Shown in pieces: positions 2,392 through 19,616 of a DNA stretch of 20,000 nt. Each line of letters begins with the position of its first letter. Position 1 is the stretch's first letter. Position numbers and translations under genes: made by a program. Below the pieces are notes generated by a model. That model saw only the letters and a program-made list of their open reading frames with translations, was not told where the DNA came from and searched no databases. This DNA is from Candidatus Parvarchaeota archaeon (GTDB lineage: Archaea; Nanobdellota; Nanobdellia; WJKC01), in NCBI GenBank assembly GCA_030615175.1, contig JAUWZX010000001.1, forward strand, positions 706,885 through 726,884, in the 5' to 3' direction.

Positions 2392-3369
2392 TTATATTAT
2401 TTTGACATCTCTTCGCTTTAAAATTTTTATTGACTTCGGGAGAGTTTCTAATTTATTATCATGTAACTCTAGTCTTTCGAGAGATTTTAGGTTTTTTATA
2501 GAATCCGGAAGAGTCGTTAACTGATTATACCCTAAATTTAGTGATTGGAGTGATTCTAAATCTCCTATTGACTCAGGGAGAGCCGTTAATTGATTATAAC
2601 TCAAATCTAGTTTCTGGAGTGATTTTAGGTTGCCTATAGATTCCGGAAGAGTCGTTAACTGATTATACCCTACACTTAGTGATTGAAGTGATTCTAAGCC
2701 TCCCATTAACTCCGGGAGAGCTGATAATTGATTCTTATACAAATGTAGTTCTTCGAGAGATTTCAGGTTTCTTATAGACTCTGGGAAAGTCCCTAATTTA
2801 TTATCATGTAAATCTAGTTTTTGAAGTGATTCTAAATTTCTTACTGACTCCGGGAGGGTTTCTAATTTATTACCATGTAACTCTAGTTTTTGAAGCGATT
2901 CTAAGTTTCCCATTGACTCCGGGAGAGTCTTTAACTGATTATTATATAACAATAGTCTCTGGAGTGATTTTAAGTCGCCTATCGACTCTGGAAGAGCCGT
3001 TAACTGATTATACCCTACACTTAGTGATTGAAGTGATTCCAAGTCTCCCATTGATTCTGGGAGAGTCTTTAATTGATTATTATACAAATCTATTTTCTTG
3101 AGATATTTTAGGTTGCCTATTGACTCAGGAAGAGTTGATAACTGATTACCATGTAAATTTAGTGATTGGAGTGATTCTAAGTCTCCTATTGATTCAGGGA
3201 GAGCTGATAATTGTGTTTCATTTAATCCTAAACCAATAATGTCACCATCCTTAACTTTAAATCCGGTAGTGTCAATTTCTTCTACTTGCGGAATGGATTT
3301 ACCAATAATCTTTTCCAATTCTTCCAGGACTTTCGCTTGATCGGGTTTTACATCATCTTTTTCAGTCAT
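2392..3369 (-). CDS. Cytoplasmic leucine-rich repeat protein (12 x 23-aa LRR)
   Basis: Consensus LxLxxNQLxxLPESIGxLxSLQx repeated 12 times after a ~46-aa N-cap; no signal peptide; GAGGAG RBS shortly upstream of ATG3369. Confidence 0.95.
2404..3231 (-). repeat. 69-bp intragenic tandem repeat encoding the LRR units
   Basis: Near-identical blocks gagYcgttaactgattataccctaMaYttagtgattgRagtgatt start at 2511, 2649 and 2994, spacings of 138 and 345 bp (2 x 69 and 5 x 69). Confidence 0.9.
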
Positions 3370-3392: not shown

Positions 3393-3902
3393 TTATAAGT
3401 CTTTGCTTAACCGCCAGACGTAATTTCTTGATAACCCCGTGATTCTTGCGAGTTTCCTTAATGACACCCTGCATGCCTTGTTCAGTGCTGCGCAGGCAAT
3501 TCCAGTTCCATACGCATCATTGCATAACTTTATTGCTTCACTTATCTCTTTTTCACTTAACCTTAATTCCCATCCTATCCTGCTGGCGTACATGTGAGCT
3601 TCCACTCGCCTTTGCTTTAATCCTGTCACCCTGTTCACGTATCGTTTCTGCCTCATTAATTCCCTGCTCTTCCATTCCTTAATCATTAAAGGGTAATTCA
3701 GGTTATCGCTTGCTATCATAATGCATGCCTTAACTAACTCATCCCTGTTCCTGCCCCTGGTTCCTTTACTGTTCATTAACTTCTTGTATACTTCCAGTGC
3801 TGTTCTAACTACTCTTTCAGGCAGGTAGTGTTCGCCTTTTAATTGCTGGATGATAGCGTATGCTGGCATGAATGCTTTTTTGAATGATTCCTGCTTTGTC
3901 AT
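3393..3902 (-). CDS. Transcription factor B (TFB/TFIIB)-like protein, cyclin repeats only
   Basis: LPERVVRTALEVYKK...TRGRNRDELVKACIMIAS...YPLMIKE matches TFB core repeat 1; a second degenerate repeat ends in an HTH-like SLRKLARITGLSRNYV. No CxxC Zn ribbon. Confidence 0.75.
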   Translation of the reverse strand: MTKQESFKKAFMPAYAIIQQLKGEHYLPERVVRTALEVYKKLMNSKGTRGRNRDELVKACIMIASDNLNYPLMIKEWKSRELMRQKRYVNRVTGLKQRRVEAHMYASRIGWELRLSEKEISEAIKLCNDAYGTGIACAALNKACRVSLRKLARITGLSRNYVWRLSKDL

Positions 3903-3946
3903 TGCTTTTCCTGCTTGTCTGATTCTTTATTTAAATATTTTCTTTT

Positions 3947-4636
3947 TTATAGGACTCGGTTCTTGATGTATGATTTCTTTATGCTTTTAATCTGGTTAAG
4001 GATTCTTTTGATTACGAGTTCACTGCTTAAACTGTTTATAATCAGGAAGCTCTTGTTTTCTTTCACTTCTTTAAGAAAGTCTTCCAAGCTGTCTTCTTTT
4101 CTCTTGTATAATTGTCTGGGCGACACTTGCGCTAGTGAAAGCATGTTTTCCGACATGACTGTTAAGGTTTTCATTATATTATTAGCCCATTGAGGAGTAT
4201 TTTTTTCAATTAGAAAATAAAAGTGATTTAAGATTCTGCGCCGCCCGTCAAGGTAAGATTTCCATAACGTGTTATCCCCATCGCATAACACTATGTCGTA
4301 TGATTTCTCTTCTCTTATTAATGATGATAATTCTTTAAGGCTTGTCACTGTGTAATCTGCCAGTTCATGCGCGCCGCCATTCCTGTCTATTAGCACGTTG
4401 TCAGTGATTACTTTTCCTTTCCACTTGCCTGCTTCCAGTGCTTCCTTTAAGTTGCTACCCTGTTTCAGGTCCCTGTAATTATCGCCTGCCACCATTATCT
4501 TCACAGGGTTATGTCCTTTCTTCTTATAGTATTCAATTACTTTGTAATTATCCAGGAATTTAATTACTGCTTTAATATTTGGTTTATACCCGCGGTGCAT
4601 GATGCCGTCTTCATAAGTTATTAAACCTATATTCAT
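3947..4636 (-). CDS. HAD-superfamily phosphatase, circularly permuted
   Basis: Motif III K18-P, motif IV G51-D-N-Y-R-D56 and the usual C-terminal ADYTVTSLKEL all precede motif I (IVLC-D119-G-D121-NTL) and motif II (LIIN-S202). Confidence 0.75.
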   Translation of the reverse strand: MNIGLITYEDGIMHRGYKPNIKAVIKFLDNYKVIEYYKKKGHNPVKIMVAGDNYRDLKQGSNLKEALEAGKWKGKVITDNVLIDRNGGAHELADYTVTSLKELSSLIREEKSYDIVLCDGDNTLWKSYLDGRRRILNHFYFLIEKNTPQWANNIMKTLTVMSENMLSLAQVSPRQLYKRKEDSLEDFLKEVKENKSFLIINSLSSELVIKRILNQIKSIKKSYIKNRVL

Positions 4637-4741
4637 GCTGGTATAATTTAAGAGCCTAGTTATAAACGTTGCGATTACGTTCTTTCTTATTTACTTTGTC
4701 CCTTATTTAAATAGTTCTTCTTCCCATCTTATTTTACTGGG

Positions 4742-5137
4742 ATGCTGTTCTACTCTCATGTTTTCTTTGCAGCGTTAATCTCCAGAATGCTTGGTCTAAG
4801 CCCTTTCCTTTTCATTCTTGGTTCCTTGCTGCCTGATGTGGATAATCCTAACTCTAATGTCGGCTCCTTGTGCAAGCGCTTGTCTTATTATTTGAAGGAG
4901 AATTATTCTCACCGGGGCTTGACTCATTCATTATTATTCGCCGTGCCATGCCTGTTAATTCCTTCTTTTGGCTTGGGCGTTTTATCCCATATTCTTCTGG
5001 ATTTACTGAATAAGCGCGGGGTTAGGTTATTGTATCCTAGTAAGTCATGTTTTGTTCTCCTTGGAGGCCCTTTGGTTACTGGAAAGCATGATTTCATTTT
5101 TTCAGTGTCATGCCTGGTGGTGATGCTTTTATTCTAG
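4742..5137 (+). CDS. Membrane-bound metal-dependent hydrolase (YdjM-like)
   Basis: Motifs SH, GSLLPDVD, HRGLTHSL and SHILLDLLNKRGVRLLYP. Confidence 0.85.
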   Translation: MLFYSHVFFAALISRMLGLSPFLFILGSLLPDVDNPNSNVGSLCKRLSYYLKENYSHRGLTHSLLFAVPCLLIPSFGLGVLSHILLDLLNKRGVRLLYPSKSCFVLLGGPLVTGKHDFIFSVSCLVVMLLF

Positions 5138-5889
5138 TTGGTCGTGAGGAATTAATCAGTAAAGTATTAGGTTACGTTAGTCATCGACGTTCGCTTTTCA
5201 TTAAGGCTTGCGCTGGCAGCGGGAAGACTGCTTTACTGACTCATCTTGAATTAATTATTTACAGGGCTGCTTACGCTCTTCCTCATTCTAAGAAGGAGAT
5301 TCTTTCATGCATTGCTAAACCATTAAGAGTTCCTGTTAAAGGCAGGCGCGTTTTCGAGTTGTACAGGGATGTTATTTTCGAATTAGAGTATTCTTCATGC
5401 ATTTTATTACTGGATGATGTTCATGAATTAACTAAGTCTGTTAAAGCAGTTGTTATTAAGTTATTAAGTCATGGGCTCGTAGTCATCTGCGCGGGCGAGC
5501 GCAACGTTCTTGGCCTGCCTGAGACTAATATGCCTTCATTGTCCAGGGAGGAGGTTGAGTTAATTATTAATTCAGGGCTTGAGAGGCCTGATCCTTTGCT
5601 TGCTAAATTAATCATTAATGAATGCTCTACGCCTCAGGAGGTTAATCTTGTTTTGCGCAGAGTGAAGCGTTATGATTTATCTTCCCGTGATAAGATTCAT
5701 TCATTTATTGATTCAATGCGCCGCAGGAAGAGGGAGTTAATGCCTGTATGGTCTCTGGCAATCATTATTTCATTAATGCTTTCAATGCGTTACTTTTTTT
5801 ACATGAAGCGTGAATTCCAGACTGGTTACGTTATTGCTTTCACTGCTTATTTATTAAGGGCTTTAACCAGTTTCAGGAAGCGCGGTTAG
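5110..5889 (+). CDS. AAA+/P-loop ATPase with C-terminal membrane anchor
   Basis: N-terminal LVGREE, Walker A ACAGSGKT, Walker B ILLLDDVH, two C-terminal hydrophobic helices; overlaps the upstream hydrolase gene by 28 nt. Confidence 0.8.
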   Translation: MPGGDAFILVGREELISKVLGYVSHRRSLFIKACAGSGKTALLTHLELIIYRAAYALPHSKKEILSCIAKPLRVPVKGRRVFELYRDVIFELEYSSCILLLDDVHELTKSVKAVVIKLLSHGLVVICAGERNVLGLPETNMPSLSREEVELIINSGLERPDPLLAKLIINECSTPQEVNLVLRRVKRYDLSSRDKIHSFIDSMRRRKRELMPVWSLAIIISLMLSMRYFFYMKREFQTGYVIAFTAYLLRALTSFRKRG

Positions 5890-7782: not shown

Positions 7783-8000
7783 CAGGCTTAATGATGTTTA
7801 AGGCATTATTCTTATTGTTATTATTAGTTATTGTTAGCGGGTGCACTTCAACTGGAGGCATTGACTGCGTTCTTAATGGTGACTGCGTGGTTTACGGTGA
7901 GTCTGGTGACTGTAATTGCGGGTGCTATAATAAGGATAATCTTCCTGTAGGGACTGGCGGCGAGTGCGTTAACGGTGAGTGTCAGGGCATTTTTGAGTAG
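7779..8000 (+). CDS. Small Cys-rich lipoprotein (possibly internally deleted)
   Basis: Lipobox IVSGC; CxxxxDC...DCNCGC...GECVNGEC; ATGA overlap with the upstream gene. Confidence 0.65.
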   Translation: MTGLMMFKALFLLLLLVIVSGCTSTGGIDCVLNGDCVVYGESGDCNCGCYNKDNLPVGTGGECVNGECQGIFE

Positions 8001-8374
8001 AGGTCTTTCCTTCTTATCTTCTCTGTGTATGATAAGTAAACGTCAATGTCAGATACTCGCTTATCCTGTTTGTTCGTTTCCAGTTTAATGCATGTTTTCT
8101 TTAATTCGTATGGGTTTATGTTTGGCGTGACTTTTAAGACGTAGCCTTTTCTTTGGCCTGCTATGAATGGGTGCCTGAAGTTCCTGAGGCAGTCTGTTTT
8201 TTTAGTGCGCAGGAATTCAATTTCAGGATATTCTTTCTCCAAGTAATGCTTTACCCGGTTAACGTATGGTTTCATGTATTTAGCCCAGCGGTCTTCTTTA
8301 ACCCAGATTTCAATGACTAATGGTTCAACAGTGCATAACCTCTTTATTCTCTGGAACAGGTTTAACCGCGTCAT
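7982..8374 (-). CDS. CitX-like (phosphoribosyl-dephospho-CoA transferase-like) protein, divergent
   Basis: C-terminal PYELKKTCIKLET...KRVSDIDVY...KIRRKDL resembles the CitX pattern LK..ci.lE.....R..DiDV....isR..l. ATG8374 is 24 nt below a TTTTTAAA box; the ORF track starts at 8395. Confidence 0.5.
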   Translation of the reverse strand: MTRLNLFQRIKRLCTVEPLVIEIWVKEDRWAKYMKPYVNRVKHYLEKEYPEIEFLRTKKTDCLRNFRHPFIAGQRKGYVLKVTPNINPYELKKTCIKLETNKQDKRVSDIDVYLSYTEKIRRKDLYSKMP

Positions 8375-8444
8375 CGAGCAAAGTGATGATTTCATTAATT
8401 TAAAAATGTTTTTATATTAATTCCTTCCTTAAGTGGGAGTAATT

Positions 8445-11167: not shown

Positions 11168-11315
11168 AAATCAACAATAAAAGAACGTTGTTTAAAAAAA
11201 CTTTCTAAATCATTATTCTATTTTCTTCAGCTATGCCTTGACTTTCTTTTTAGTGTTCTTCCTATTCTAGCGAAGAAAATGAGTAATTTAAAGGGGTAAT
11301 TGTTATATTTCTAAT

Positions 11316-11333
11316 TGTTCTTTAATAAGAACA
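11316..11333. promoter_or_regulatory. 7-bp inverted repeat touching the start of the GHKL/HK operon (candidate operator)
   Basis: TGTTCTT-taat-AAGAACA; the last A is the A of ATG11333. Confidence 0.35.
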
Positions 11334-13795
11334 TGTCAAAGAAAAATGAAGTTTTTTTTAATATAGACTCTAAGATACTATTTGAGTTAGGTGAAAAACT
11401 AGTAATAAATAGGGCAGTTGCGCTTGTAGAACTAGTTAAGAATTCGTATGACGCTGATGCAACAAAAGTCACAATTCAAATGAAGGATGTCAAAAAACAA
11501 GGAGGTACAATTATAATAAAAGATAATGGGCGTGGTATGAGTTTATCCCGTTTTAAGGAGACATGGATGAGGATAGCAACAACAGAAAAAGAAAAGAATC
11601 CAATTTCTAAAAAATATAAAAGAAGAAAAGCAGGTGAGAAAGGAATTGGAAGATTTGCATGCAGAAGACTGTCTAACAAATTGGTTTTAAAAACCATCTC
11701 CAAAATAGGTAAAAGGAATAAGGAAGAATTAAATGCGGTTTTTAATTGGCCTAAATTTACTCCTGGAACTGATGTAAATGAAGTTCCTATCGAATACACA
11801 ATCAAAAGGACAGATAAAGGAGAGATAGGCACTACTTTAATCTTGGAGAACACTAGAGATTCATGGAGTTGGAGGGATATTAACAAACTCAGAGAGGAAT
11901 TGACTTCTTTAGTTTCCCCTACAACTCTTAAAGAGAAAAGGATTAATAAAAAGATTGACCCAGGATTTAATATAGAGTTTGATTTGCCTGAATTCGAGTC
12001 GAAAACAAAGCCTTTAGATAAAACCTTTTTTATAAATGCTTGGGCAAAGTTGTTTGGACATATTGATAAGAATGGGATTACAGAATATAAGATAGAAGTG
12101 ATTAAAAAAATTGAGAATAAAATTAAAAAAACATTTAAACGAAAAGAGAGATTTAAAAATTTAAAAAATGTTAATTTTCAAATCCACATTTTTGTTTATT
12201 CAAGTGAATTCTTTAAAGATTCCGAATGGGCCCTTAGCAAGGCGAGACAGATTAGTACAGAAAAAGGAGGAATCAAGGTGTATGCTGATAGTTTTAGAAT
12301 ATTTGGTTATGGAGAATCCGGCGATGACTGGTTAAAAATTGATCGTGATAGGGCCAGATCCAGAACAGTTGTAGATAAAGAGGTTTCTATTTTTGCAAAA
12401 GAAGCTAAAAGACCAGGTTTGCATTTATTCAGGAATCAAGCTCTTTTTGGTCATGTATTATTTTCAAAGGAAGACAACCCTAAATTAGAGATTTCTATAA
12501 ATAGGGAGAGGCTAATAAAAAATAAAGCATTTGAGGAGTTAAAACAGTTTGTCAGGTTGGGAATAGATTTTGCTACAATTTTATATGCAAATGAGATTGT
12601 TCAAAAGGAAAAAAAGAAAAAAGAAAAGAAAAGAAAAGAGGGGGAAAAAGTACAAGAAGAAGTTAAGGAAGAAATACATAAAATTGAGGAATTAATCAAG
12701 AAATCTAAAGAGAAAATAATAAAGGCTAAAAAGAGAGTAAAAAAAATTGAAGAAAAAATAAAAAGAATAGAAGGAGATAAAAAAGAATTAGAGAAAACGC
12801 ATATAAAATTAGGTGAAAAATTATTAAATGTTAGTAGTCCAAAATATAAAAATAAGATTAAAGACATCCTGCAGGAGGAACAGAAGAATCTAAAATTAGA
12901 AAAAGGACTAAGAGAAGAAGAAAAGAAAGCCAGAAAAGAATTAGAAAAAATACAAGATGAGTCTGAGAATATAATTCTAAACTCTATAAAAGAAAGTATT
13001 GTAGCAACTGAAAAACTAGAAGAAATTTATCGGCAAGAAGTAGTACAGGAAAAAGAGGAAATTAAACATATTATGATTTTAGCTGCAACAGGCACCCTTA
13101 TACTAATATTTGGTCACGAGATTATTGCATTTATAACCAATATTGAAGAGCTTATTAAAAAAATTTCCCCTTTGTTACAAAAACCAAAAAAAATCAAAGA
13201 GGAAACAATAAAAGAATTAGAAAAATATATGAAGGAACTTAAAATTAAAAAAGAAATGATGAAAGAAATGGGAAGTTTAATTGGATTAATCTCAAGCAGG
13301 GAAAGTAGACTTGAAAGAAAGGAATGGGTCTTATTACCAATAGTAAAAGAAGTTTTCAAACCATTTAGAGAATATTTAAAGGAGACTATTGGAATAAAAT
13401 ACGAATTTTCAATACACAAAGCTTTAAGGACACCAGAAATGCACCGTTCTGAGATATTTTCAATCTTACATAATTTATTGACAAACTCAGTTAAAGCACT
13501 TAAAGAGGTTGAAAAAAGAAAAATAGAAGTTAGAGCATTAGAAAACAATAAAAATGTTTGTATATTATTCCTTGATACAGGAATTGGTGTTAAAAAAGAA
13601 AGAAGGGAGAAAGTGTTTGAAATGTTTGAAAGCACTAGTGAACCTGACATGGAATTTGGTGTAGGAACAGGATTGGGACTATATTTGATTAGAGAAATAA
13701 CGAGGTCTTATGGTGGAGATGTTAAATTCATTGATGCACCAAAAGGATGGAAAACTTGTGTTGAAATTATTTTGCCAAAGGATGTGAAAAAATGA
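11333..13795 (+). CDS. MORC-like GHKL ATPase / coiled coil / histidine kinase fusion
   Basis: N-terminal GHKL motifs ALVELVKNSYDADA, IKDNGRGM, GEKGIGRFA, GTTLIL; S5-like region GGIKVY..FRIFGYG..DDWL...NRERL; long K/E coiled coil; H-box FGHEI (His codon 13115-13117); HATPase HNLLTNSVKA, DTGIGV, VFEMF, GTGLGLYL. No TM segment. ATG11333 preferred over TTG11315. Confidence 0.9.
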   Translation: MSKKNEVFFNIDSKILFELGEKLVINRAVALVELVKNSYDADATKVTIQMKDVKKQGGTIIIKDNGRGMSLSRFKETWMRIATTEKEKNPISKKYKRRKAGEKGIGRFACRRLSNKLVLKTISKIGKRNKEELNAVFNWPKFTPGTDVNEVPIEYTIKRTDKGEIGTTLILENTRDSWSWRDINKLREELTSLVSPTTLKEKRINKKIDPGFNIEFDLPEFESKTKPLDKTFFINAWAKLFGHIDKNGITEYKIEVIKKIENKIKKTFKRKERFKNLKNVNFQIHIFVYSSEFFKDSEWALSKARQISTEKGGIKVYADSFRIFGYGESGDDWLKIDRDRARSRTVVDKEVSIFAKEAKRPGLHLFRNQALFGHVLFSKEDNPKLEISINRERLIKNKAFEELKQFVRLGIDFATILYANEIVQKEKKKKEKKRKEGEKVQEEVKEEIHKIEELIKKSKEKIIKAKKRVKKIEEKIKRIEGDKKELEKTHIKLGEKLLNVSSPKYKNKIKDILQEEQKNLKLEKGLREEEKKARKELEKIQDESENIILNSIKESIVATEKLEEIYRQEVVQEKEEIKHIMILAATGTLILIFGHEIIAFITNIEELIKKISPLLQKPKKIKEETIKELEKYMKELKIKKEMMKEMGSLIGLISSRESRLERKEWVLLPIVKEVFKPFREYLKETIGIKYEFSIHKALRTPEMHRSEIFSILHNLLTNSVKALKEVEKRKIEVRALENNKNVCILFLDTGIGVKKERREKVFEMFESTSEPDMEFGVGTGLGLYLIREITRSYGGDVKFIDAPKGWKTCVEIILPKDVKK

Positions 13796-14877
13796 AAAAA
13801 GTAAATGTAATATATATAGACGACTCAGAAGAAGAACTTGAAAAGTATAAAAAGAAATTTGAGAAGAATAATAAGGCACAAAGGCTTTTCAAGATAATTC
13901 CAATACAATCTCAAGAATTAAAACGTGATGAAATTTCAACTCTTCCAATAAAAGGAGCTGCTTTGGTACTAATGGATTATGATTTGAGTTATCGTTCAAG
14001 TGATGAGAAGACAAGTCCTTTTTTTGGAATATCATTAGCAACTGGGATAAAACAAAAATTTTTTGATGTACCAATAATACTTTTCATGAGGCGGGGCATA
14101 TTTATTCAATATCAAACAATTGTCAAAAAGTATCCAAACGTAGTGATTGACATAATTTTGAAAAGAAATTTATTTAGGAAAAAAGAAAAATTAGATTATC
14201 TTTATAATCTTGCTATGGATTTTTATAAACTTAGTAGAGTTAAAAATAAAGGATTAAATAAATTATTGGAATTGCTAAAAGTGCCAAAAGAAGACTCTAA
14301 TAGTATTAAACTTGCGAACCCACCCCTTAATAAAAAAGGTTTGTGGTCAGTTTCAGAGATATCAAAATGGATTCGAAAAATTTTATTAGCATACCCAGGT
14401 ATTTTATATGACCCCATTCATGCAGCTACTTTTTTAGGACTATCCAAAAAATCCTTCCTGAAAAAAGAAGTTCAAAAATTCTTCAAAGATGCGAAATATG
14501 AAGGTGTTTTTGCACCAGCAGACGGAAGATGGTGGAAATCAAAGTTACAAAAAATTGCTTTATCTATAGTAGAAATTGAAATGAAGGCCATACCTATACG
14601 TAAGAGTTTTCCTGAATCTTGGGAAAATAAAAAGGGTAGAATTAATAAATCAAAATGTGTTTTTAGTAGAAAATCGCCTGCAGAATGGGTATGTTGTATC
14701 TTAAAGAAACCAATCATGCTTAGATACTCTTTACCATACCATAAGGATAATCGCCCAGTAATTATGGACGAGGCGAGGATTTCCTATAAAGCTATAAGAG
14801 AATCTAATGAAATTAACGATGATTTTCTCGATTTAGCAGATAAACCATTATTGAAAAAAATTAGAAATAAAAGATGA
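13792..14877 (+). CDS. Response-regulator receiver protein with uncharacterised Cys-containing C-terminal domain
   Basis: VIYID10-D11, LVLM-D62-YDL, G..LA..IKQKFFDVPIILF, K124; C-terminal YPGILYD...YEGVF...RWWKSKL...CVFS...VCC. ATGA overlap with the kinase. Confidence 0.8.
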   Translation: MKKVNVIYIDDSEEELEKYKKKFEKNNKAQRLFKIIPIQSQELKRDEISTLPIKGAALVLMDYDLSYRSSDEKTSPFFGISLATGIKQKFFDVPIILFMRRGIFIQYQTIVKKYPNVVIDIILKRNLFRKKEKLDYLYNLAMDFYKLSRVKNKGLNKLLELLKVPKEDSNSIKLANPPLNKKGLWSVSEISKWIRKILLAYPGILYDPIHAATFLGLSKKSFLKKEVQKFFKDAKYEGVFAPADGRWWKSKLQKIALSIVEIEMKAIPIRKSFPESWENKKGRINKSKCVFSRKSPAEWVCCILKKPIMLRYSLPYHKDNRPVIMDEARISYKAIRESNEINDDFLDLADKPLLKKIRNKR

Positions 14878-15626
14878 TAATTATGCATTTAAAAAGTTAT
14901 CCTGCTATCTTAAAAAGATTAAACCACCACATCAAACCTTTTTTGGATGCAAGTTCTCACGATACACTACATCAAGTAGCAGATAATTTTATTGAGAAAG
15001 AGGAAAAAAGGAAAATAATATGGCATATTAAAATATCAAAACAATATCCTTTGTTGTTTTCAACCACAAAAGATCTTAATTTTCCTTTACAAGTAGATCT
15101 TTCTTGCAACATAAAAGGAGAATTTAATAAACAAGATTCCACTAATAAAGTGGAAAAACATAATGCAATTATTAGCGTATGGTCTATGGATAAAAAATTA
15201 AGCTATAGAAAAAAAATAGATGCTAAAAATATTAAAAAACCACTTGAAAATTCAGATTGGAGAAGAGTTATATTACGCTTTCACATAGATAAAAAATCTC
15301 CTAATAATAATTTTGAACCTTTATATCATTTACATTTTGGGGGCAAATGTAAAAATGATGAATTTTGTTGGTTTCCAGAAAAAGTATCTGAACCAAGATT
15401 TCGTTTTTTTCCTATGGATGTGGTTCTTTTGTGTGAATTTATTCTAACAAACTTTTTTCCAAAAGAATCTCTTGATTTGAGAGCGAAGCGCGAGTGGATA
15501 ACTCTTGTTAGAAAATGTCAAGAAGCATACTTAGAATCTTATATAAATCAATGTAGAAGATTTTTGAATAATAATGATAATACATTTTTAGGGTTTTTGA
15601 TAAAAAACAAGGAGTTGTATAAATGA
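14874..15626 (+). CDS. Uncharacterised protein with RFHID / PLYHLHFGG / PR..PMD motifs (DUF2290-like, candidate effector)
   Basis: 250-aa ORF joined by ATGA overlaps on both sides. The family resemblance is from memory of the motif only. Confidence 0.6.
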   Translation: MIIMHLKSYPAILKRLNHHIKPFLDASSHDTLHQVADNFIEKEEKRKIIWHIKISKQYPLLFSTTKDLNFPLQVDLSCNIKGEFNKQDSTNKVEKHNAIISVWSMDKKLSYRKKIDAKNIKKPLENSDWRRVILRFHIDKKSPNNNFEPLYHLHFGGKCKNDEFCWFPEKVSEPRFRFFPMDVVLLCEFILTNFFPKESLDLRAKREWITLVRKCQEAYLESYINQCRRFLNNNDNTFLGFLIKNKELYK

Positions 15627-17194
15627 AGTTAAAAGAAACTCCTAAGAGTCATATAAAAAATCATGAACTTACAGAATATGCTGAAAATTTAACTAATATT
15701 TATTTAGGTTTAACGGATTCAAATCATCGCAAAAAAAATGAGCAATTTTTTACACCAAAAGAAGTAGCTATGTTAATGGTTCGCCAGTTCGACAATTTAA
15801 GTAAAAAATCAAAAATTAAAATATTAGACCCTGGGGCCGGAATAGGTATTTTCGAGAGTACAATATGTGAATTCTTATTATCTAAAAACATAAAATCGGA
15901 AATATTATTCGAAATATATGAAAAAGATGATAAAATACTGCCCTTTCTCAAAAAAAATTTAGAACATTGTAAAAGATTAATGTCTAAAAAAAATACAAGA
16001 ATAAGTTACAATATAAATAATTCTGATTTCATTTTAGAAAACTCTTTTATCCTGAAAGAAAATAAAAAATTGGATTTAAAATATTGTTTTGATTTTATAA
16101 TTTGCAATCCTCCTTATCAAAAAACAAATGAATATTTGAAGAGTAATAAAAATTTAAAAGAGATAGTAAAAAACCAGCCTAATATGTATACGTTGTTTAT
16201 GACCTTAGCCTCTAAATTATTGAAAGCAGGAGGAGAATTGACTTTTATAACACCAAGAAGTTATTGCTCTGGTTTATATTTTAAGCATTTCAGAAAATCA
16301 TTCTTAAATGAAATTAAACCAACTAGAATACATATCTTCAATTCGAGAAATAAGGTATTCAAAAAATACAATGTATTACAAGAAATAATAATTTTGACTG
16401 GTTTAAAGACAAAAAAGTCACCCAAAAAAGTTATAATAAGTAAGAGCGAAGGCATACCTCATAAAATAAAAAAATTAGAAAAAAGAAAAACGATTTTTGA
16501 AAATGTAATTGTTAAAAAAGGAGATGGGGTCATCATAAAAGTACCTCTTTCTGATTTTGAAGAAAAATTAACTAACAAATTAAATACTTTAAAATTTAAA
16601 ATGCCTGAATTAGGAATAAAAGTTTCAACTGGGCGTGTTGTTCCTTTTAGATCAAAAAAGTTTATAATAAAACATTTCAAAAAACATCAAAAACATTATC
16701 CTTTGATTTGGATGCAAAATATCCAAAATGAAAAAGTTAAGTGGCCTTTAAATAATAAAAAACCCATAGCAATTAAAAAAGAGGATGGCTGTGCTAATCT
16801 TTTAGTACCTAATCAAAATTATGTGTTAGTGAAAAGATTTAGTGCTAAAGAAGGGGAAAGAAGAATTTGTGCCGGAGTTTTATTAAATTCCATGACTAAT
16901 TATGAATATATTGGAATTGAAAATCATGTAAATTATATTCATAAAATCAATGGAAATTTAACGGTTCAGGAAACTTATGGGATAACTGCATTGCTGAATT
17001 CAAAAATTTACAATATTTATTTTCAAACAGGTAATGGTAGTACACAAGTAAATGCATATGAATTGGAAACGCTGCCACTACCATCACTTAAAAAAATTAG
17101 AAAGATAGGAAGATTAGTTATGAAAAATAAAAAAGCAAATATTGACAAGATACTCGCTAACAAATTAAATTTGCCTTATAATTCTAACTTTTAA
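15623..17194 (+). CDS. N6-adenine DNA methyltransferase, gamma class (Eco57I-domain, BsuBI/PstI-like)
   Basis: QFFTP, motif I ILDPGAGIG, motif IV IICNPPY, PNMYTLF, FITPRSYCSGLYF, VSTGRVVPFR, ENHVNYIH and GSTQVNAYEL..LPLP. Confidence 0.92.
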   Translation: MKLKETPKSHIKNHELTEYAENLTNIYLGLTDSNHRKKNEQFFTPKEVAMLMVRQFDNLSKKSKIKILDPGAGIGIFESTICEFLLSKNIKSEILFEIYEKDDKILPFLKKNLEHCKRLMSKKNTRISYNINNSDFILENSFILKENKKLDLKYCFDFIICNPPYQKTNEYLKSNKNLKEIVKNQPNMYTLFMTLASKLLKAGGELTFITPRSYCSGLYFKHFRKSFLNEIKPTRIHIFNSRNKVFKKYNVLQEIIILTGLKTKKSPKKVIISKSEGIPHKIKKLEKRKTIFENVIVKKGDGVIIKVPLSDFEEKLTNKLNTLKFKMPELGIKVSTGRVVPFRSKKFIIKHFKKHQKHYPLIWMQNIQNEKVKWPLNNKKPIAIKKEDGCANLLVPNQNYVLVKRFSAKEGERRICAGVLLNSMTNYEYIGIENHVNYIHKINGNLTVQETYGITALLNSKIYNIYFQTGNGSTQVNAYELETLPLPSLKKIRKIGRLVMKNKKANIDKILANKLNLPYNSNF

Positions 17195-17207: not shown

Positions 17208-17747
17208 TCAAATGTTTTTCGTACCTCTTATTCTATCCATTCCTTTATTAATTTTTAATAAATTTTTCCATTCAGATAATCTTTCGGATTTCCAACGATT
17301 ACATTGTGGGCTCGTGGAATATGCACTTTCTATTCTTAATTCAAGTTCTTCAAGTTTACTATAATATTTCTTCCATTTTTTCTTTATTGTCCTGCCACCA
17401 TTTAAAAAAATTAACTTTAGATTGGGTGTTGCTTCTTTTAATTTTGAAAAATCATTTGATTTCTCATTACGTATTTTTTTATCAGTGCTTCCGTCTCTTT
17501 CGCAGGAATAAAAAAGATCCCATAATCCAATTTTATTTTTAAAAAGCATTTCTTTTCTCTCTTCATAGGATAAAGAAGTAGTAAAGTCTTCATTTAATAC
17601 TTGAAACATTATCTTCCAAAATTGGTTTTTTTCATTTGCATAATATTTACCTTTCTTCAGTGATTCCTCTCCTGGAAACGACCCTAATATTAAAGTCTCT
17701 GTTTTATTGTTATAAATTGGACCTAACCCTTTTTTAATCATTATCAT
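17208..17747 (-). CDS. Uracil-DNA glycosylase superfamily, family 6 (hypoxanthine-DNA glycosylase-like)
   Basis: LILGSFPGEESL...YYAN..NQFW, IGLWD, SCER.GS.D..I, IFLNG and STSP. Confidence 0.88.
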   Translation of the reverse strand: MIMIKKGLGPIYNNKTETLILGSFPGEESLKKGKYYANEKNQFWKIMFQVLNEDFTTSLSYEERKEMLFKNKIGLWDLFYSCERDGSTDKKIRNEKSNDFSKLKEATPNLKLIFLNGGRTIKKKWKKYYSKLEELELRIESAYSTSPQCNRWKSERLSEWKNLLKINKGMDRIRGTKNI

Positions 17748-17823
17748 TAAACGATTGCTGTTTTTATTTAAATAATTTCTTGTAGTGACTAATAAATACT
17801 TCAGAATCGTTATTTGGTTTTAT

Positions 17824-18489
17824 TTAGCCATTCTTTTTCTTCTTGGCTTTCTTTTCCTCTTTTTCTCTCCTTTCTTTATCTCGAATTGGTAAAGTTATAT
17901 TTACATAATTAAATTCGTCTATGGCCTTAGGTAGTGTTTTATTATTATCTCTATAACTCATAGTTTCATATATTTCTTGCATATTTCTAAGAAATTGAGT
18001 ATACCCCTCTGCATCTCTTTTGTACTTTTTAAGCCCCCAATACCCATTCCTTACAATTTTAAGATTTTTATAATACCTTTTAGATTTTTGGCCACTAATG
18101 TATGAATCCCACATCACAAATACAGATGGGTTTTTTAAATGCATAATTTTTGAAGCACCAGTATAACCAACTCCCTCAATTGCAGATAAAGTATTAAATA
18201 TCATCTTTATTTCTTCTCTATAAGCATCAAAATTAATTGTTTTAAATTTTTTATTTTTAAATTTTTTAAAATGTTTATCAAGTTTTCCCATCGTTTTTTT
18301 GAAACCATTGATGTCAAATTCTTTCACGTACCTAAAATAACCAATATTCCACGTTGACAAAATAAACAAACAAGCTTCAGTTCCTAATTCTTTATCGATC
18401 ATTTTAAGAAACATAGGATAATAACTTCCTCTGTTTTCAAGTTGATTAAATTTTTTAAATGCCTTTTTAAATTCACCATTAAGAACCAT
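17824..18489 (-). CDS. Putative HhH/OGG-fold DNA glycosylase-like protein
   Basis: LSAIEGVGYTGASKIMHL (HhH-like motif followed by Lys) then P..FVMWD (Asp), plus L.TWN and KAIDEFNY; Lys-rich tail. Confidence 0.55.
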   Translation of the reverse strand: MVLNGEFKKAFKKFNQLENRGSYYPMFLKMIDKELGTEACLFILSTWNIGYFRYVKEFDINGFKKTMGKLDKHFKKFKNKKFKTINFDAYREEIKMIFNTLSAIEGVGYTGASKIMHLKNPSVFVMWDSYISGQKSKRYYKNLKIVRNGYWGLKKYKRDAEGYTQFLRNMQEIYETMSYRDNNKTLPKAIDEFNYVNITLPIRDKERREKEEKKAKKKKNG

Positions 18490-18626
18490 ACATTACTCAA
18501 AGATCTATACATTAATATCTTTTACTTTCTTCTTAAGTTTTCTTCCTCATTTTCATTATCTTTCATAATAATATTTTTGGTTAATTTATAATAACTTTTT
18601 TATAGTTATCTTAAATAGATTTCATT

Positions 18627-19616
18627 ATGACATTTTTATTAAAAGACGATGTTGAATACAAAAGAACTGATTTCAGAAATGAGGATGAACTTGAAAAAGT
18701 TGTTGTTAAGAATTATAAAAGAATTTTTGGAGAAAAAACAGTTTATTTTGACATCAAGAAGAAAGTTAAATCAAAAAAGGGAAACATAAATAGTATCCCT
18801 GATGGTTATGTTATTAGTTTCATGGGGCCTAAACCTCGATTATTAGTTATAGAAAATGAGTTATCAATACATGATCCAATCAAGCATATTGGAATTCAAT
18901 TATGGAACTTTGCTAGTTCATTTAAGGATGGTAATAGAACAATTAAGAAATTTTTATTAAACGAAATAAATAATAACAAATCAATTAAGCAAGAGATTAA
19001 TAAATATCTTAAAAAAACCGTATTTCCAAATATTTCTGAACTGTTAGATTTTGTTATTTTTGAAAATGATTATTCCTTTGTTGTTGTAATTGATGATATT
19101 ACTGAAACTTTAAATTTTGCTCTAAAACAATTAGCTAATAAACCAGATATTATTGAATTAAAAAAATATACTTCAACTATTGACGCCTCAAAGATTATTT
19201 ACAGGTATGATAAATTCCAAGGAGAATTGTTAGTATCTATATCAAAGAAGGTTCTTAATGTTTCTGAATTTGATACAATAGTTTGCCCTGCTAATAAACA
19301 AGGATTTAAAGACGTGTTTTTAGGTGAAGATAGATGGTATGCTATTAGAATGTCTCCATCAATAATACCTCAAATTAGATACGTGGCCATGTACGAAACA
19401 GCTCCAGTATCAGCTATAAGATGGATTGGAATCATTAAAGAAATTAAGCCATATAAAGATACAGCTAAATATGAAATAATTTTAATTGATAAAAAGCAAA
19501 TAAAACCGATAAAATTAACTCCGGAAGAAACTAAGAAAGGTTATGCGCCACAAGGCCCAAGATATTCAAAAATGGATTTAATTAAAAAAGCTAAAAAGAT
19601 GAGTGATATATTTTAA
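18627..19616 (+). CDS. PD-(D/E)xK nuclease fused to a C-terminal PUA/EVE-like domain (candidate modification-dependent restriction enzyme)
   Basis: N-terminal EDELE...IPDGY...VIENEL..HD...HI..QL..F (NucS/Mrr-like); separate C-terminal domain DTIVCPA...GF..VFLGEDRWYAIR...YVAMYETAPVSAI...APQGPRY. Confidence 0.7.
   Translation: MTFLLKDDVEYKRTDFRNEDELEKVVVKNYKRIFGEKTVYFDIKKKVKSKKGNINSIPDGYVISFMGPKPRLLVIENELSIHDPIKHIGIQLWNFASSFKDGNRTIKKFLLNEINNNKSIKQEINKYLKKTVFPNISELLDFVIFENDYSFVVVIDDITETLNFALKQLANKPDIIELKKYTSTIDASKIIYRYDKFQGELLVSISKKVLNVSEFDTIVCPANKQGFKDVFLGEDRWYAIRMSPSIIPQIRYVAMYETAPVSAIRWIGIIKEIKPYKDTAKYEIILIDKKQIKPIKLTPEETKKGYAPQGPRYSKMDLIKKAKKMSDIF

Follow-up and report, generated by a model that had tools for sequence, protein, structure and literature searches.

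A candidate Ambrosia-like defence cassette in a Parvarchaeota archaeon, with a putative DUF2290 relative in the place of the HNH protein

The closest described relative of the locus considered here is Ambrosia, a cluster of five genes from Pseudomonas aeruginosa (AbrR-AbrA-AbrB-AbrC-AbrD) encoding an XRE protein, an N6-adenine DNA methyltransferase (MTase), an HATPase kinase, a receiver with a winged helix-turn-helix (REC-wHTH) and an HNH protein (bioRxiv 10.1101/2025.09.30.679545). The accessible text of that preprint reports that the system acts against phages, that the receiver substitution D60A abolishes defence, that expression followed with reporters is induced on infection, and that defence comes without host toxicity. 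Phage passaged on the MTase alone stays sensitive, so methylation fails to protect it, yet every gene is needed (bioRxiv 10.1101/2025.09.30.679545). Here we describe a four-gene cassette, open reading frames (ORFs) 1 to 4, in a Candidatus Parvarchaeota archaeon (assembly GCA_030615175.1). It encodes a soluble sensor kinase, a receiver, a protein of 250 amino acids (aa) and an N6-adenine MTase, and very probably defends its host against mobile DNA. The cassette lies in a stretch of 20,000 nucleotides (contig JAUWZX010000001.1, positions 706,885 to 726,884), hereafter the window, which is the final 20 kb of its contig; the genome measures 1.02 Mb and is 87% complete, and genomes of the host phylum are small (~0.5-2 Mb). 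The initial annotation of the window had named no experimentally studied kin for this four-gene layout. Ambrosia, an anti-phage system that unites an N6-MTase, an HATPase kinase, a REC protein and HNH, is such a relative.

Three further bodies of work touch the parts of the cassette. Kinases built as HATPase_c_3-DHp-HATPase_c, with their receivers, occur beside methylases and were predicted to control restriction-modification (R-M), and the accessible text leaves the role of such pairs open (PMC8011034). ParaMORCs were placed in R-M operons and proposed to work in R-M systems (PMC2292703, in its accessible part). The Helicase+DUF2290 system is reported to block T7 (PMC9122126, likewise). The Ambrosia-like class is thus known, and it is the variant with ORF3 and DUF2290 that is new: in the literature searched, where subscription journals are thinly covered, no paper was found that describes it or ties DUF2290 to a kinase-receiver-MTase cassette.

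A near-obligate triad and its exchangeable methyltransferase

The four genes are co-oriented and joined by stop/start ATGA overlaps at 13792, 14874 and 15623, with coordinates that bear out the initial annotation. A search with an alignment of ORF2 gave 93 related loci (15 from GTDB and 78 from metagenomes); these and other loci are referred to by number below. The kinase gene lies directly upstream of the receiver gene in 73/73 assessable loci, an ORF3 gene lies directly downstream in 83/84 (the exception is L001), and an N6-MTase adjoins this triad in all 20 loci with both flanks; in L077 the MTase is a BsuBI/PstI fusion enzyme encoded on the opposite strand. Searches seeded with ORF3 led to full cassettes in 2/2 cases of a first set (which leaves out a 51-aa fragment at a contig edge, and in which one case is nearly identical to L011) and in 6/6 cases among further genomes. 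The initial annotation had proposed a comparison of gene order among homologues, and in these counts the order is kept; since it is conserved across phyla, the layout goes beyond chance. Kinase, receiver and ORF3 form a near-obligate triad, to which an exchangeable N6-MTase is added.

Hosts include Methanoperedens, Methanolobus, ANME-1, Woesearchaeota, Chloroflexota, Desulfomonilaceae, Verrucomicrobiae and Eubacteriales, a range of mainly anaerobic or sediment bacteria and archaea, and distant members sit on plasmids of Hymenobacter, Halomicrobium and Rhizobium. A plasmid tblastn search with ORF2 and two ORF3 relatives found nothing, a blank that reflects limited sensitivity, since divergent members were later found on plasmids via the kinase; a single-sequence scan with ORF3 returned no GTDB locus. 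The cassette was found in none of 300 other host-phylum genomes and in none of 30 relatives, and it occurs in 2/401, 3/401 and 7/301 genomes of three other phyla, seed genomes included. Its GC content is 28.5% against 36.5% for the genome, a value equally low in 7/989 same-sized windows. Genes for type I and III R-M, toxin-antitoxin systems, integrases and transposases neighbour the related loci. On its absence from the phylum sample, its low GC content and these mobile and R-M neighbours elsewhere, the cassette is mobile and was horizontally acquired; no convincing terminal repeats or target duplication were seen at the cassette itself. Among 150 of the 155 neighbour ORFs (de-duplicated, >=75 aa), there was no HNH, no recurring nuclease and no conserved superfamily 2 (SF2) helicase or Vsr, helicase domains being confined to type I/III R-M and HerA neighbours of single loci.

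ORF4 (15623-17194, forward strand, 523 aa) is a gamma-class N6-adenine DNA MTase of the BsuBI/PstI-like group, with the motifs FFTP (residues 42-45), DPGAGIG (69) and NPPY (162), an Eco57I/N6_Mtase-type domain (Pfam Eco57I, E 4.8e-17) and a PADLOC match to MTase_II (E 2.7e-110); its best plasmid match is annotated as BsuBI/PstI family. The enzyme had been annotated as intact and BsuBI/PstI-like, and as lacking a BsuBI/PstI-type endonuclease nearby. Both points hold, the second among the window ORFs scanned (15 against Pfam and 7 against PADLOC), and the catalytic residues of the MTase are kept throughout the family. Across related loci, triads that are close kin are accompanied by MTases of different subfamilies, at least two in all, and the gene may stand downstream, upstream or on the opposite strand, although it is usually last. 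The BsuBI_PstI_RE domain was found in two related loci, L061 and L077, and in no other neighbour ORF scanned. There, complete BsuBI/PstI R-M units, separate or fused, occupy the usual place of the orphan MTase (L061:4287-6808 and L077:11243-13795), a hint that the MTase came to the triad by capture from a BsuBI/PstI R-M system.

These observations bear on whether the cassette is a regulated classical R-M system, in which the MTase would mark self, ORF3 would be a new endonuclease that cuts where methylation is missing, and cutting would be licensed by the kinase-receiver pair. The adjacency of the MTase in all 20 loci and its descent from BsuBI/PstI-type R-M methylases are in keeping with such a scheme, as is the role in R-M systems proposed for paraMORCs (PMC2292703, accessible part). 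However, two or more MTase subfamilies beside related triads are hard to square with a fixed ORF3 specificity, and pre-methylated phage was not protected from Ambrosia, as far as the accessible preprint goes. Palindromic 6-mers, moreover, show no strong avoidance in the host genome (CTGCAG has an observed/expected ratio of 0.78, like several others), which is a weak test if the cassette arrived recently. We regard a classical R-M system as improbable. By analogy with Ambrosia, where MTase-grown phage stayed sensitive, the initial proposal that the MTase marks self is doubtful here; the enzyme may instead be a required partner that supplies or reports a DNA mark, and no simple self-protector.

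The paraMORC-type kinase and the divergent receiver

ORF1 (11333-13795, forward strand) is 820 aa long counted from its ATG, with an in-frame TTG at 11315. It joins a paraMORC-type GHKL ATPase (residues 28-135; Pfam HATPase_c_3, E 1.7e-24), an S5-like transducer, a long K/E-rich linker, a DHp domain with the putative phospho-His595 (codon at 13115) and a C-terminal kinase ATPase (residues 706-816; HATPase_c, E 5.2e-25). The S5 and coiled-coil labels are putative; they are taken from the accessible text of PMC2292703 and from composition, with no fold behind them. E33/N37/D40, the G boxes, H595, N718 and G778/G780/G782 are common to 46-47 of the 47 full-length homologues, in accord with the soluble kinase with two ATPase modules and an intact His that had been annotated at the outset. 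The accompanying label of a MORC-like GHKL protein fared less evenly. The GHKL ATPase is there, but the MORC signature GhXhhpXXRhl of the S5 domain (PMC2292703, accessible part) occurs in 0/48 ORF1-family sequences, where 45/48 carry G-x8-R-x3-YG, one residue longer than the MORC form. ORF1 is therefore called paraMORC-like and not MORC proper. It has the GHKL motifs and R-M context of the broad paraMORC class. The HEF_HK model (PF19191) does not match ORF1 at E<=0.1, and among seven kin kinases it gives a sub-threshold match in L107 only (E 0.0079). On domain content ORF1 is an AbrB-like sensor kinase, Ambrosia having been compared throughout by its description and domains.

ORF1 seems to be the only histidine kinase of its host genome, where kinase searches gave two matches in ORF1 and one N-terminal-type match elsewhere. 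Two-component parts had been thought uncommon in this lineage. For receivers this is not supported: PF00072 exceeds the Pfam cut-off in 82/151 host-phylum genomes, with up to 12 per genome.

ORF2 (13792-14877, forward strand, 361 aa) consists of a receiver domain (residues 3-150) and a ~210-aa output region of no known family. The receiver residues are D10, D11, D62 (codon 13975) and K124, and the model folds as a receiver (VIA Z 14.5, root-mean-square deviation 2.3 over 126 aligned residues; AlphaFold predicted local distance difference test (pLDDT) 82.9). D62 and K124 are common to 74/74 homologues. The intact Asp62 of the initial annotation stands, but the receiver is not fully conserved: position 99 (codon 14086), Thr or Ser in 74/74 homologues, is Met in the window. 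PF00072 matches 42/46 aligned family members, with the divergent window protein itself escaping it, and Response_reg_2 (PF19192) matches 0/46 at E<=1. The best GTDB match of ORF2 is on a Woesearchaeota contig (46% identity). By departures from near-invariant positions, the window receiver ranks 4th of 75 and the window kinase 4th of 48.

The output region carries the motifs YPGILYD, WWKS, C289/C301 and DxRPxxMDxARxS and has no match in Pfam, PDB sequences or the Atlas. A degenerate zinc finger may surround C289/C301, though this is an impression only, since pLDDT falls below 50 at residues 290-305. A profile of the region matches the receivers of L105, L106, L107 and L113, relatives on plasmids that are discussed below, and not the receivers beside HNH or metallo-beta-lactamase-fold (MBL) genes; it also misses that of L108.

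What the output region does separates two views of the receiver. In a transcriptional relay of the kind put forward for Ambrosia, the receiver, once phosphorylated, would bind DNA through a helix-turn-helix (HTH)-like output and induce the MTase and ORF3, the latter being active once made. Reporters of Ambrosia are induced on infection and AbrC has a wHTH, according to the accessible preprint. In the window receiver, the secondary structure predicted for residues 205-257 (a short strand, three helices, a strand and a helix) could be that of a MerR/excisionase-type wHTH; comparison of the output region with an HTH_17 (MerR/excisionase) set by hhalign gave a probability of 4.5% over 12 columns, with a score of 17.8 against <=14.5 in 50 shuffles. 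The MTase gene also lies on the opposite strand in L008 and L138-L140, and therefore needs its own expression there. Yet no HTH family beyond one weak match was found in 39 output regions, all four window genes are translationally coupled, and the family has no conserved XRE gene. A dedicated XRE search with a six-sequence profile hit 1/102 sequences, that one being in the seed; 40 receiver-seeded loci had >=600 nt upstream. The window has no XRE match either, and the divergent 165-bp gap between a host Nudix gene and ORF1 (11168-11332), at the edge of the low-GC island, is too short for an XRE gene; a promoter scan of this gap gave a signal no better than chance. Among the sequencing runs listed, one DNA run (share 0.07) and no RNA run matched. 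Finally, the cassette persists in both bacterial and archaeal hosts, whose RNA polymerases differ. On balance, a purely transcriptional relay appears unlikely here, and gating of ORF3 at the protein level is favoured by a natural receiver-ORF3 fusion protein (P0131), by an output region that partly co-varies with the third gene, by the missing XRE gene and by the spread over two transcription machineries.

ORF3 and the effector slot

ORF3 (14874-15626, forward strand, 250 aa), the putative effector, belongs to a family of 338 representatives at E<=0.001 that share the motif RxHxD...PxxHxQxGG...PR...PxD. H152 (codon 15327) is present in 127/127 homologues, H137 (15282) in 113, D139 in 117 and R175 in 126, and R135 is a further residue of the family motif. 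The HxH that had been taken as the hallmark of the protein proved incidental, since H154 is kept in only 20/127 homologues; 105 have Gln. The AlphaFold model is of high confidence (pLDDT 94.5). Foldseek found no match for it among PDB and viral models at E<=0.001, the best E-value in a PDB sequence search was 0.15, and Pfam detected no HNH in ORF3; ORF3 thus has no known fold, which is short of proving a new one. A likeness to an E2/UBC-like or TumE-like fold was considered and dropped, as the fold-search lists give it no backing.

Three lines of evidence, not fully independent, suggest that ORF3 is remotely related to DUF2290. In the Atlas, DUF2290 is the lead for the ORF3 family (score 0.89, 15% of members). 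Pfam DUF2290 (PF10053) matches 3/128 family members (best E 2.2e-4) and the PADLOC model 8/128 (best 2.5e-6). Profile comparison by hhalign, with 60 of 120 fetched proteins on the DUF2290 side, gave a probability of 86.6, E 4.5e-6 and a score of 43.6, against <=22.5 in 30 shuffles and probabilities below 0.2% for reversed and receiver controls. This alignment places H152 on the invariant His of DUF2290 (60/60), within a common core RFxxD...PxxHL..G...P.P...F..F...NF[FY]. A helicase adjoins DUF2290 in L100/L104. A shorter ORF3 subtype of 195-200 aa, lacking ~50 residues, occurs in L002, L003, L014, L019, L031, L040, L044 and L058 (Methanoperedens and others) and offers a natural minimal version for biochemistry.

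The position after the receiver is filled differently among related kinases, as seen in 11 of the 20 listed plasmid matches of ORF1. The slot is ORF3-type in L105, L106 and L108, weakly ORF3-like in L107, HNH in L110 and L111, and an MBL protein in L115; the L109 gene is assigned to no family, and in L112 and L114 a gene in this position was not found. The Ambrosia layout is complete in L110 (XRE, MTase, kinase, receiver, HNH) and recurs in L107 with the weakly ORF3-like gene. A dedicated search with two HNH proteins from kin cassettes hit 0/102 sequences. In a quick kinase tree, which has long branches and omits the split L111 kinase, L108 (ORF3) is the sister of L113 (putatively PIN-like), with SH-aLRT 100; the window kinase falls in a starred clade of 17 members, both archaeal and bacterial. 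Since the slot is swapped among kin, often for nucleases, ORF3 is one of several exchangeable proteins.

On the Halomicrobium plasmid NZ_CP044130.1 an ORF3 homologue (L106:8322-9161, forward strand; E 1.2e-13) follows the response regulator and is missing from the gene table. The Clavibacter plasmid NZ_CP040793.1 has a slot protein that is putatively PIN-like by motif, with no Pfam match (L113:8026-8607, forward strand). On the Stenotrophomonas plasmid CP031730.1 an unlisted 232-aa ORF (L109:8261-8959, forward strand) follows a C5-MTase, the kinase and a short receiver; its HG and SCG motifs recall a caspase/CHAT-type protease, with no Pfam match, and it is possibly another type of effector.

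Guard systems such as PARIS are known. In a guard or abortive-infection reading of the cassette, the MTase would be a decoy that draws phage anti-restriction proteins and is watched by the kinase, and the cell would be killed or stalled by ORF3. An MTase that is always present, freely swapped and orphan would suit a decoy, and putatively PIN-like and MBL proteins also stand in the effector slot; against this, Ambrosia defence shows no host toxicity in the accessible preprint, and the contact between MTase and kinase is hypothetical, so that a guard is quite improbable. More improbable still is a role outside defence. The cassette would then be a selfish module or one for epigenetic regulation, its two-component pair controlling methylation and ORF3 serving as an adaptor without catalytic activity. 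Neither ORF3 nor the output region has a known fold or family, and PMC8011034, in its accessible text, does not settle what such pairs do. Still, ORF3 has invariant His, Arg and Asp residues, nucleases take the same slot in kin, the spread across domains is patchy, and the relative Ambrosia is a validated defence system.

The reading we prefer is therefore one of phosphorelay-controlled defence. The paraMORC ATPase would be a clamp or sensor on DNA, gated by ATP; DNA of an invader, or disturbance of an MTase-DNA complex, would trigger autophosphorylation of H595 and then transfer to D62; and the receiver output region would switch on ORF3. That the clamp or sensor drives phosphorylation of H595 and transfer to D62 we consider probable. 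A role of ORF3 as effector is moderately likely; it would be a nuclease that depends on His, or another toxic hydrolase, with H152/H137/D139 at its core. Whether the phosphorylated receiver turns ORF3 on at the protein level via its output region, and not only through transcription, seems evenly poised. The full chain, an anti-phage or anti-plasmid Ambrosia-like cassette with a phosphorelay switching ORF3 on, is put forward tentatively, at a little under even confidence. The initial annotation had offered the 250-aa protein as a possible effector of such a relay. Co-occurrence and slot swapping make this the best reading, because ORF3 sits where kin kinases have HNH or MBL proteins, and its mechanistic steps are ones that we infer.

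Several points weigh against this reading. The variant is known from sequence analysis, and the evidence from Ambrosia points to transcriptional induction (bioRxiv 10.1101/2025.09.30.679545, accessible text). The 93 loci are partly redundant and receiver-seeded, and P0131 is a single sequence, perhaps the product of misassembly. Nuclease folds are not among the matches of the ORF3 model (VIA-wide, the best Z is 4.4). For the window ORF3 itself, the DUF2290 models of Pfam and PADLOC give no match, and the hhalign match spans only 57 columns, with a shallow template profile (Neff 2.5). Protection was absent with a lactococcal homologue of Helicase+DUF2290 (PMC11381338, accessible text), and no description of DUF2290 biochemistry was found in the accessible parts of the literature searched. 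Lastly, this copy may be weakened, because Thr99 is lost and kinase and receiver rank among the more deviant copies; we think it rather unlikely that the Thr99 change weakens it.

A bolder version can be stated. The paraMORC clamp would read the methylation state of DNA, the output region would physically unleash ORF3, ORF3 and DUF2290 would represent a new fold of His-dependent nuclease, and the phosphorelay would be a direct immune switch with no transcription step. We judge this rather unlikely as well. If true, it would account for the passage of the cassette between bacteria and archaea, and the chemistry of DUF2290 would have a first point of access. In either version, the analysis ties an unannotated family of several hundred members to DUF2290 and singles out H152, H137, D139, R135 and R175 as residues to mutate.

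Surrounding genes and likeness to described systems

The three genes 3' of the MTase (17208-19616) were considered as parts of the cassette and rejected, having no homologue in the 93 loci. Two of them (17208-18489, reverse strand) encode a DNA-deoxyinosine glycosylase (TIGR04274, above cut-off) and a 221-aa protein with a helix-hairpin-helix-like motif and a weak DUF6308 match, two possible DNA glycosylases that perhaps act on modified phage DNA. The third (18627-19616, forward strand), in the same low-GC island, encodes a 329-aa protein with a weak Cas4 match (PADLOC E 0.0057), whose N-terminus looks putatively PD-(D/E)xK nuclease-like (PDG...IENE), with no PDB match. Elsewhere in the window, a 325-aa leucine-rich-repeat protein (2392-3369, reverse strand) has 23-residue repeats of eukaryote-like type, in an archaeon with a small genome. 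A cluster at 3393-5889 holds a TFIIB-repeat/HTH gene (TFIIB repeat by Pfam), an HAD-like ORF, a membrane metal-hydrolase-like ORF and an AAA ATPase with C-terminal membrane helices. A CitX-like (apo-citrate lyase transferase) match (7982-8395, reverse strand; E 1.2e-6) stands in a window with no citrate lyase gene seen. Other flanking genes we take to be those of Rpl21e, RNA polymerase subunit F and Cbf5, which, with the TFIIB-repeat gene, mark the host as archaeal. Given the small genomes of its phylum and the Woesearchaeota match of ORF2, a DPANN-like host is plausible.

Among described systems, the BsuBI/PstI type II R-M systems share their MTase group with ORF4, but the window lacks the cognate endonuclease. 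Helicase+DUF2290 resembles the cassette in that a small protein, with a core motif in common with ORF3, partners an NTPase-type sensor; the partner here is a kinase-receiver-MTase set with no adjacent helicase, and the homology is remote and below the Pfam cut-off. With paraMORCs and prokaryotic MORCs the window kinase shares an N-terminal GHKL module with a putative S5-like region, intact ATP-binding motifs, neighbouring methylases and a sporadic spread over bacteria and archaea, but it is fused to a histidine kinase and lacks the MORC signature. The HEF_HK (PF19191)/Response_reg_2 (PF19192) pairs likewise combine a soluble HATPase_c_3, DHp and HATPase_c kinase with a following receiver near DNA methylases. 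The window family differs in having canonical PF00072 receivers and a conserved third gene, with neither of the two Pfam models matched, and in an N6-adenine MTase where those pairs have mainly C5 enzymes.

The likeness is closest to Ambrosia. Both gather an N6-adenine MTase, an HATPase/histidine kinase, a phospho-Asp receiver and a small downstream protein in one cluster, and the Ambrosia layout itself is found around relatives of the ORF1 kinase, e.g. XRE-MTase-kinase-REC-HNH on a Deinococcus plasmid. The initial annotation had allowed that the operon might match a characterised system, and it does so in its Ambrosia-like domains and not in full: the HipB-like XRE (AbrR) and the HNH protein (AbrD) are absent, and a DUF2290-like protein takes the HNH slot. 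Where AbrC has a wHTH, the window receiver has its ~210-aa region of no known family, and the MTase gene is usually last in the window family. Ambrosia was described from Gammaproteobacteria, whereas the window family is found mainly in anaerobic and sediment bacteria and archaea. Because XRE is absent, HNH is replaced and hosts span two domains of life, the variant can separate transcriptional from protein-level control in cassettes of the Ambrosia type.

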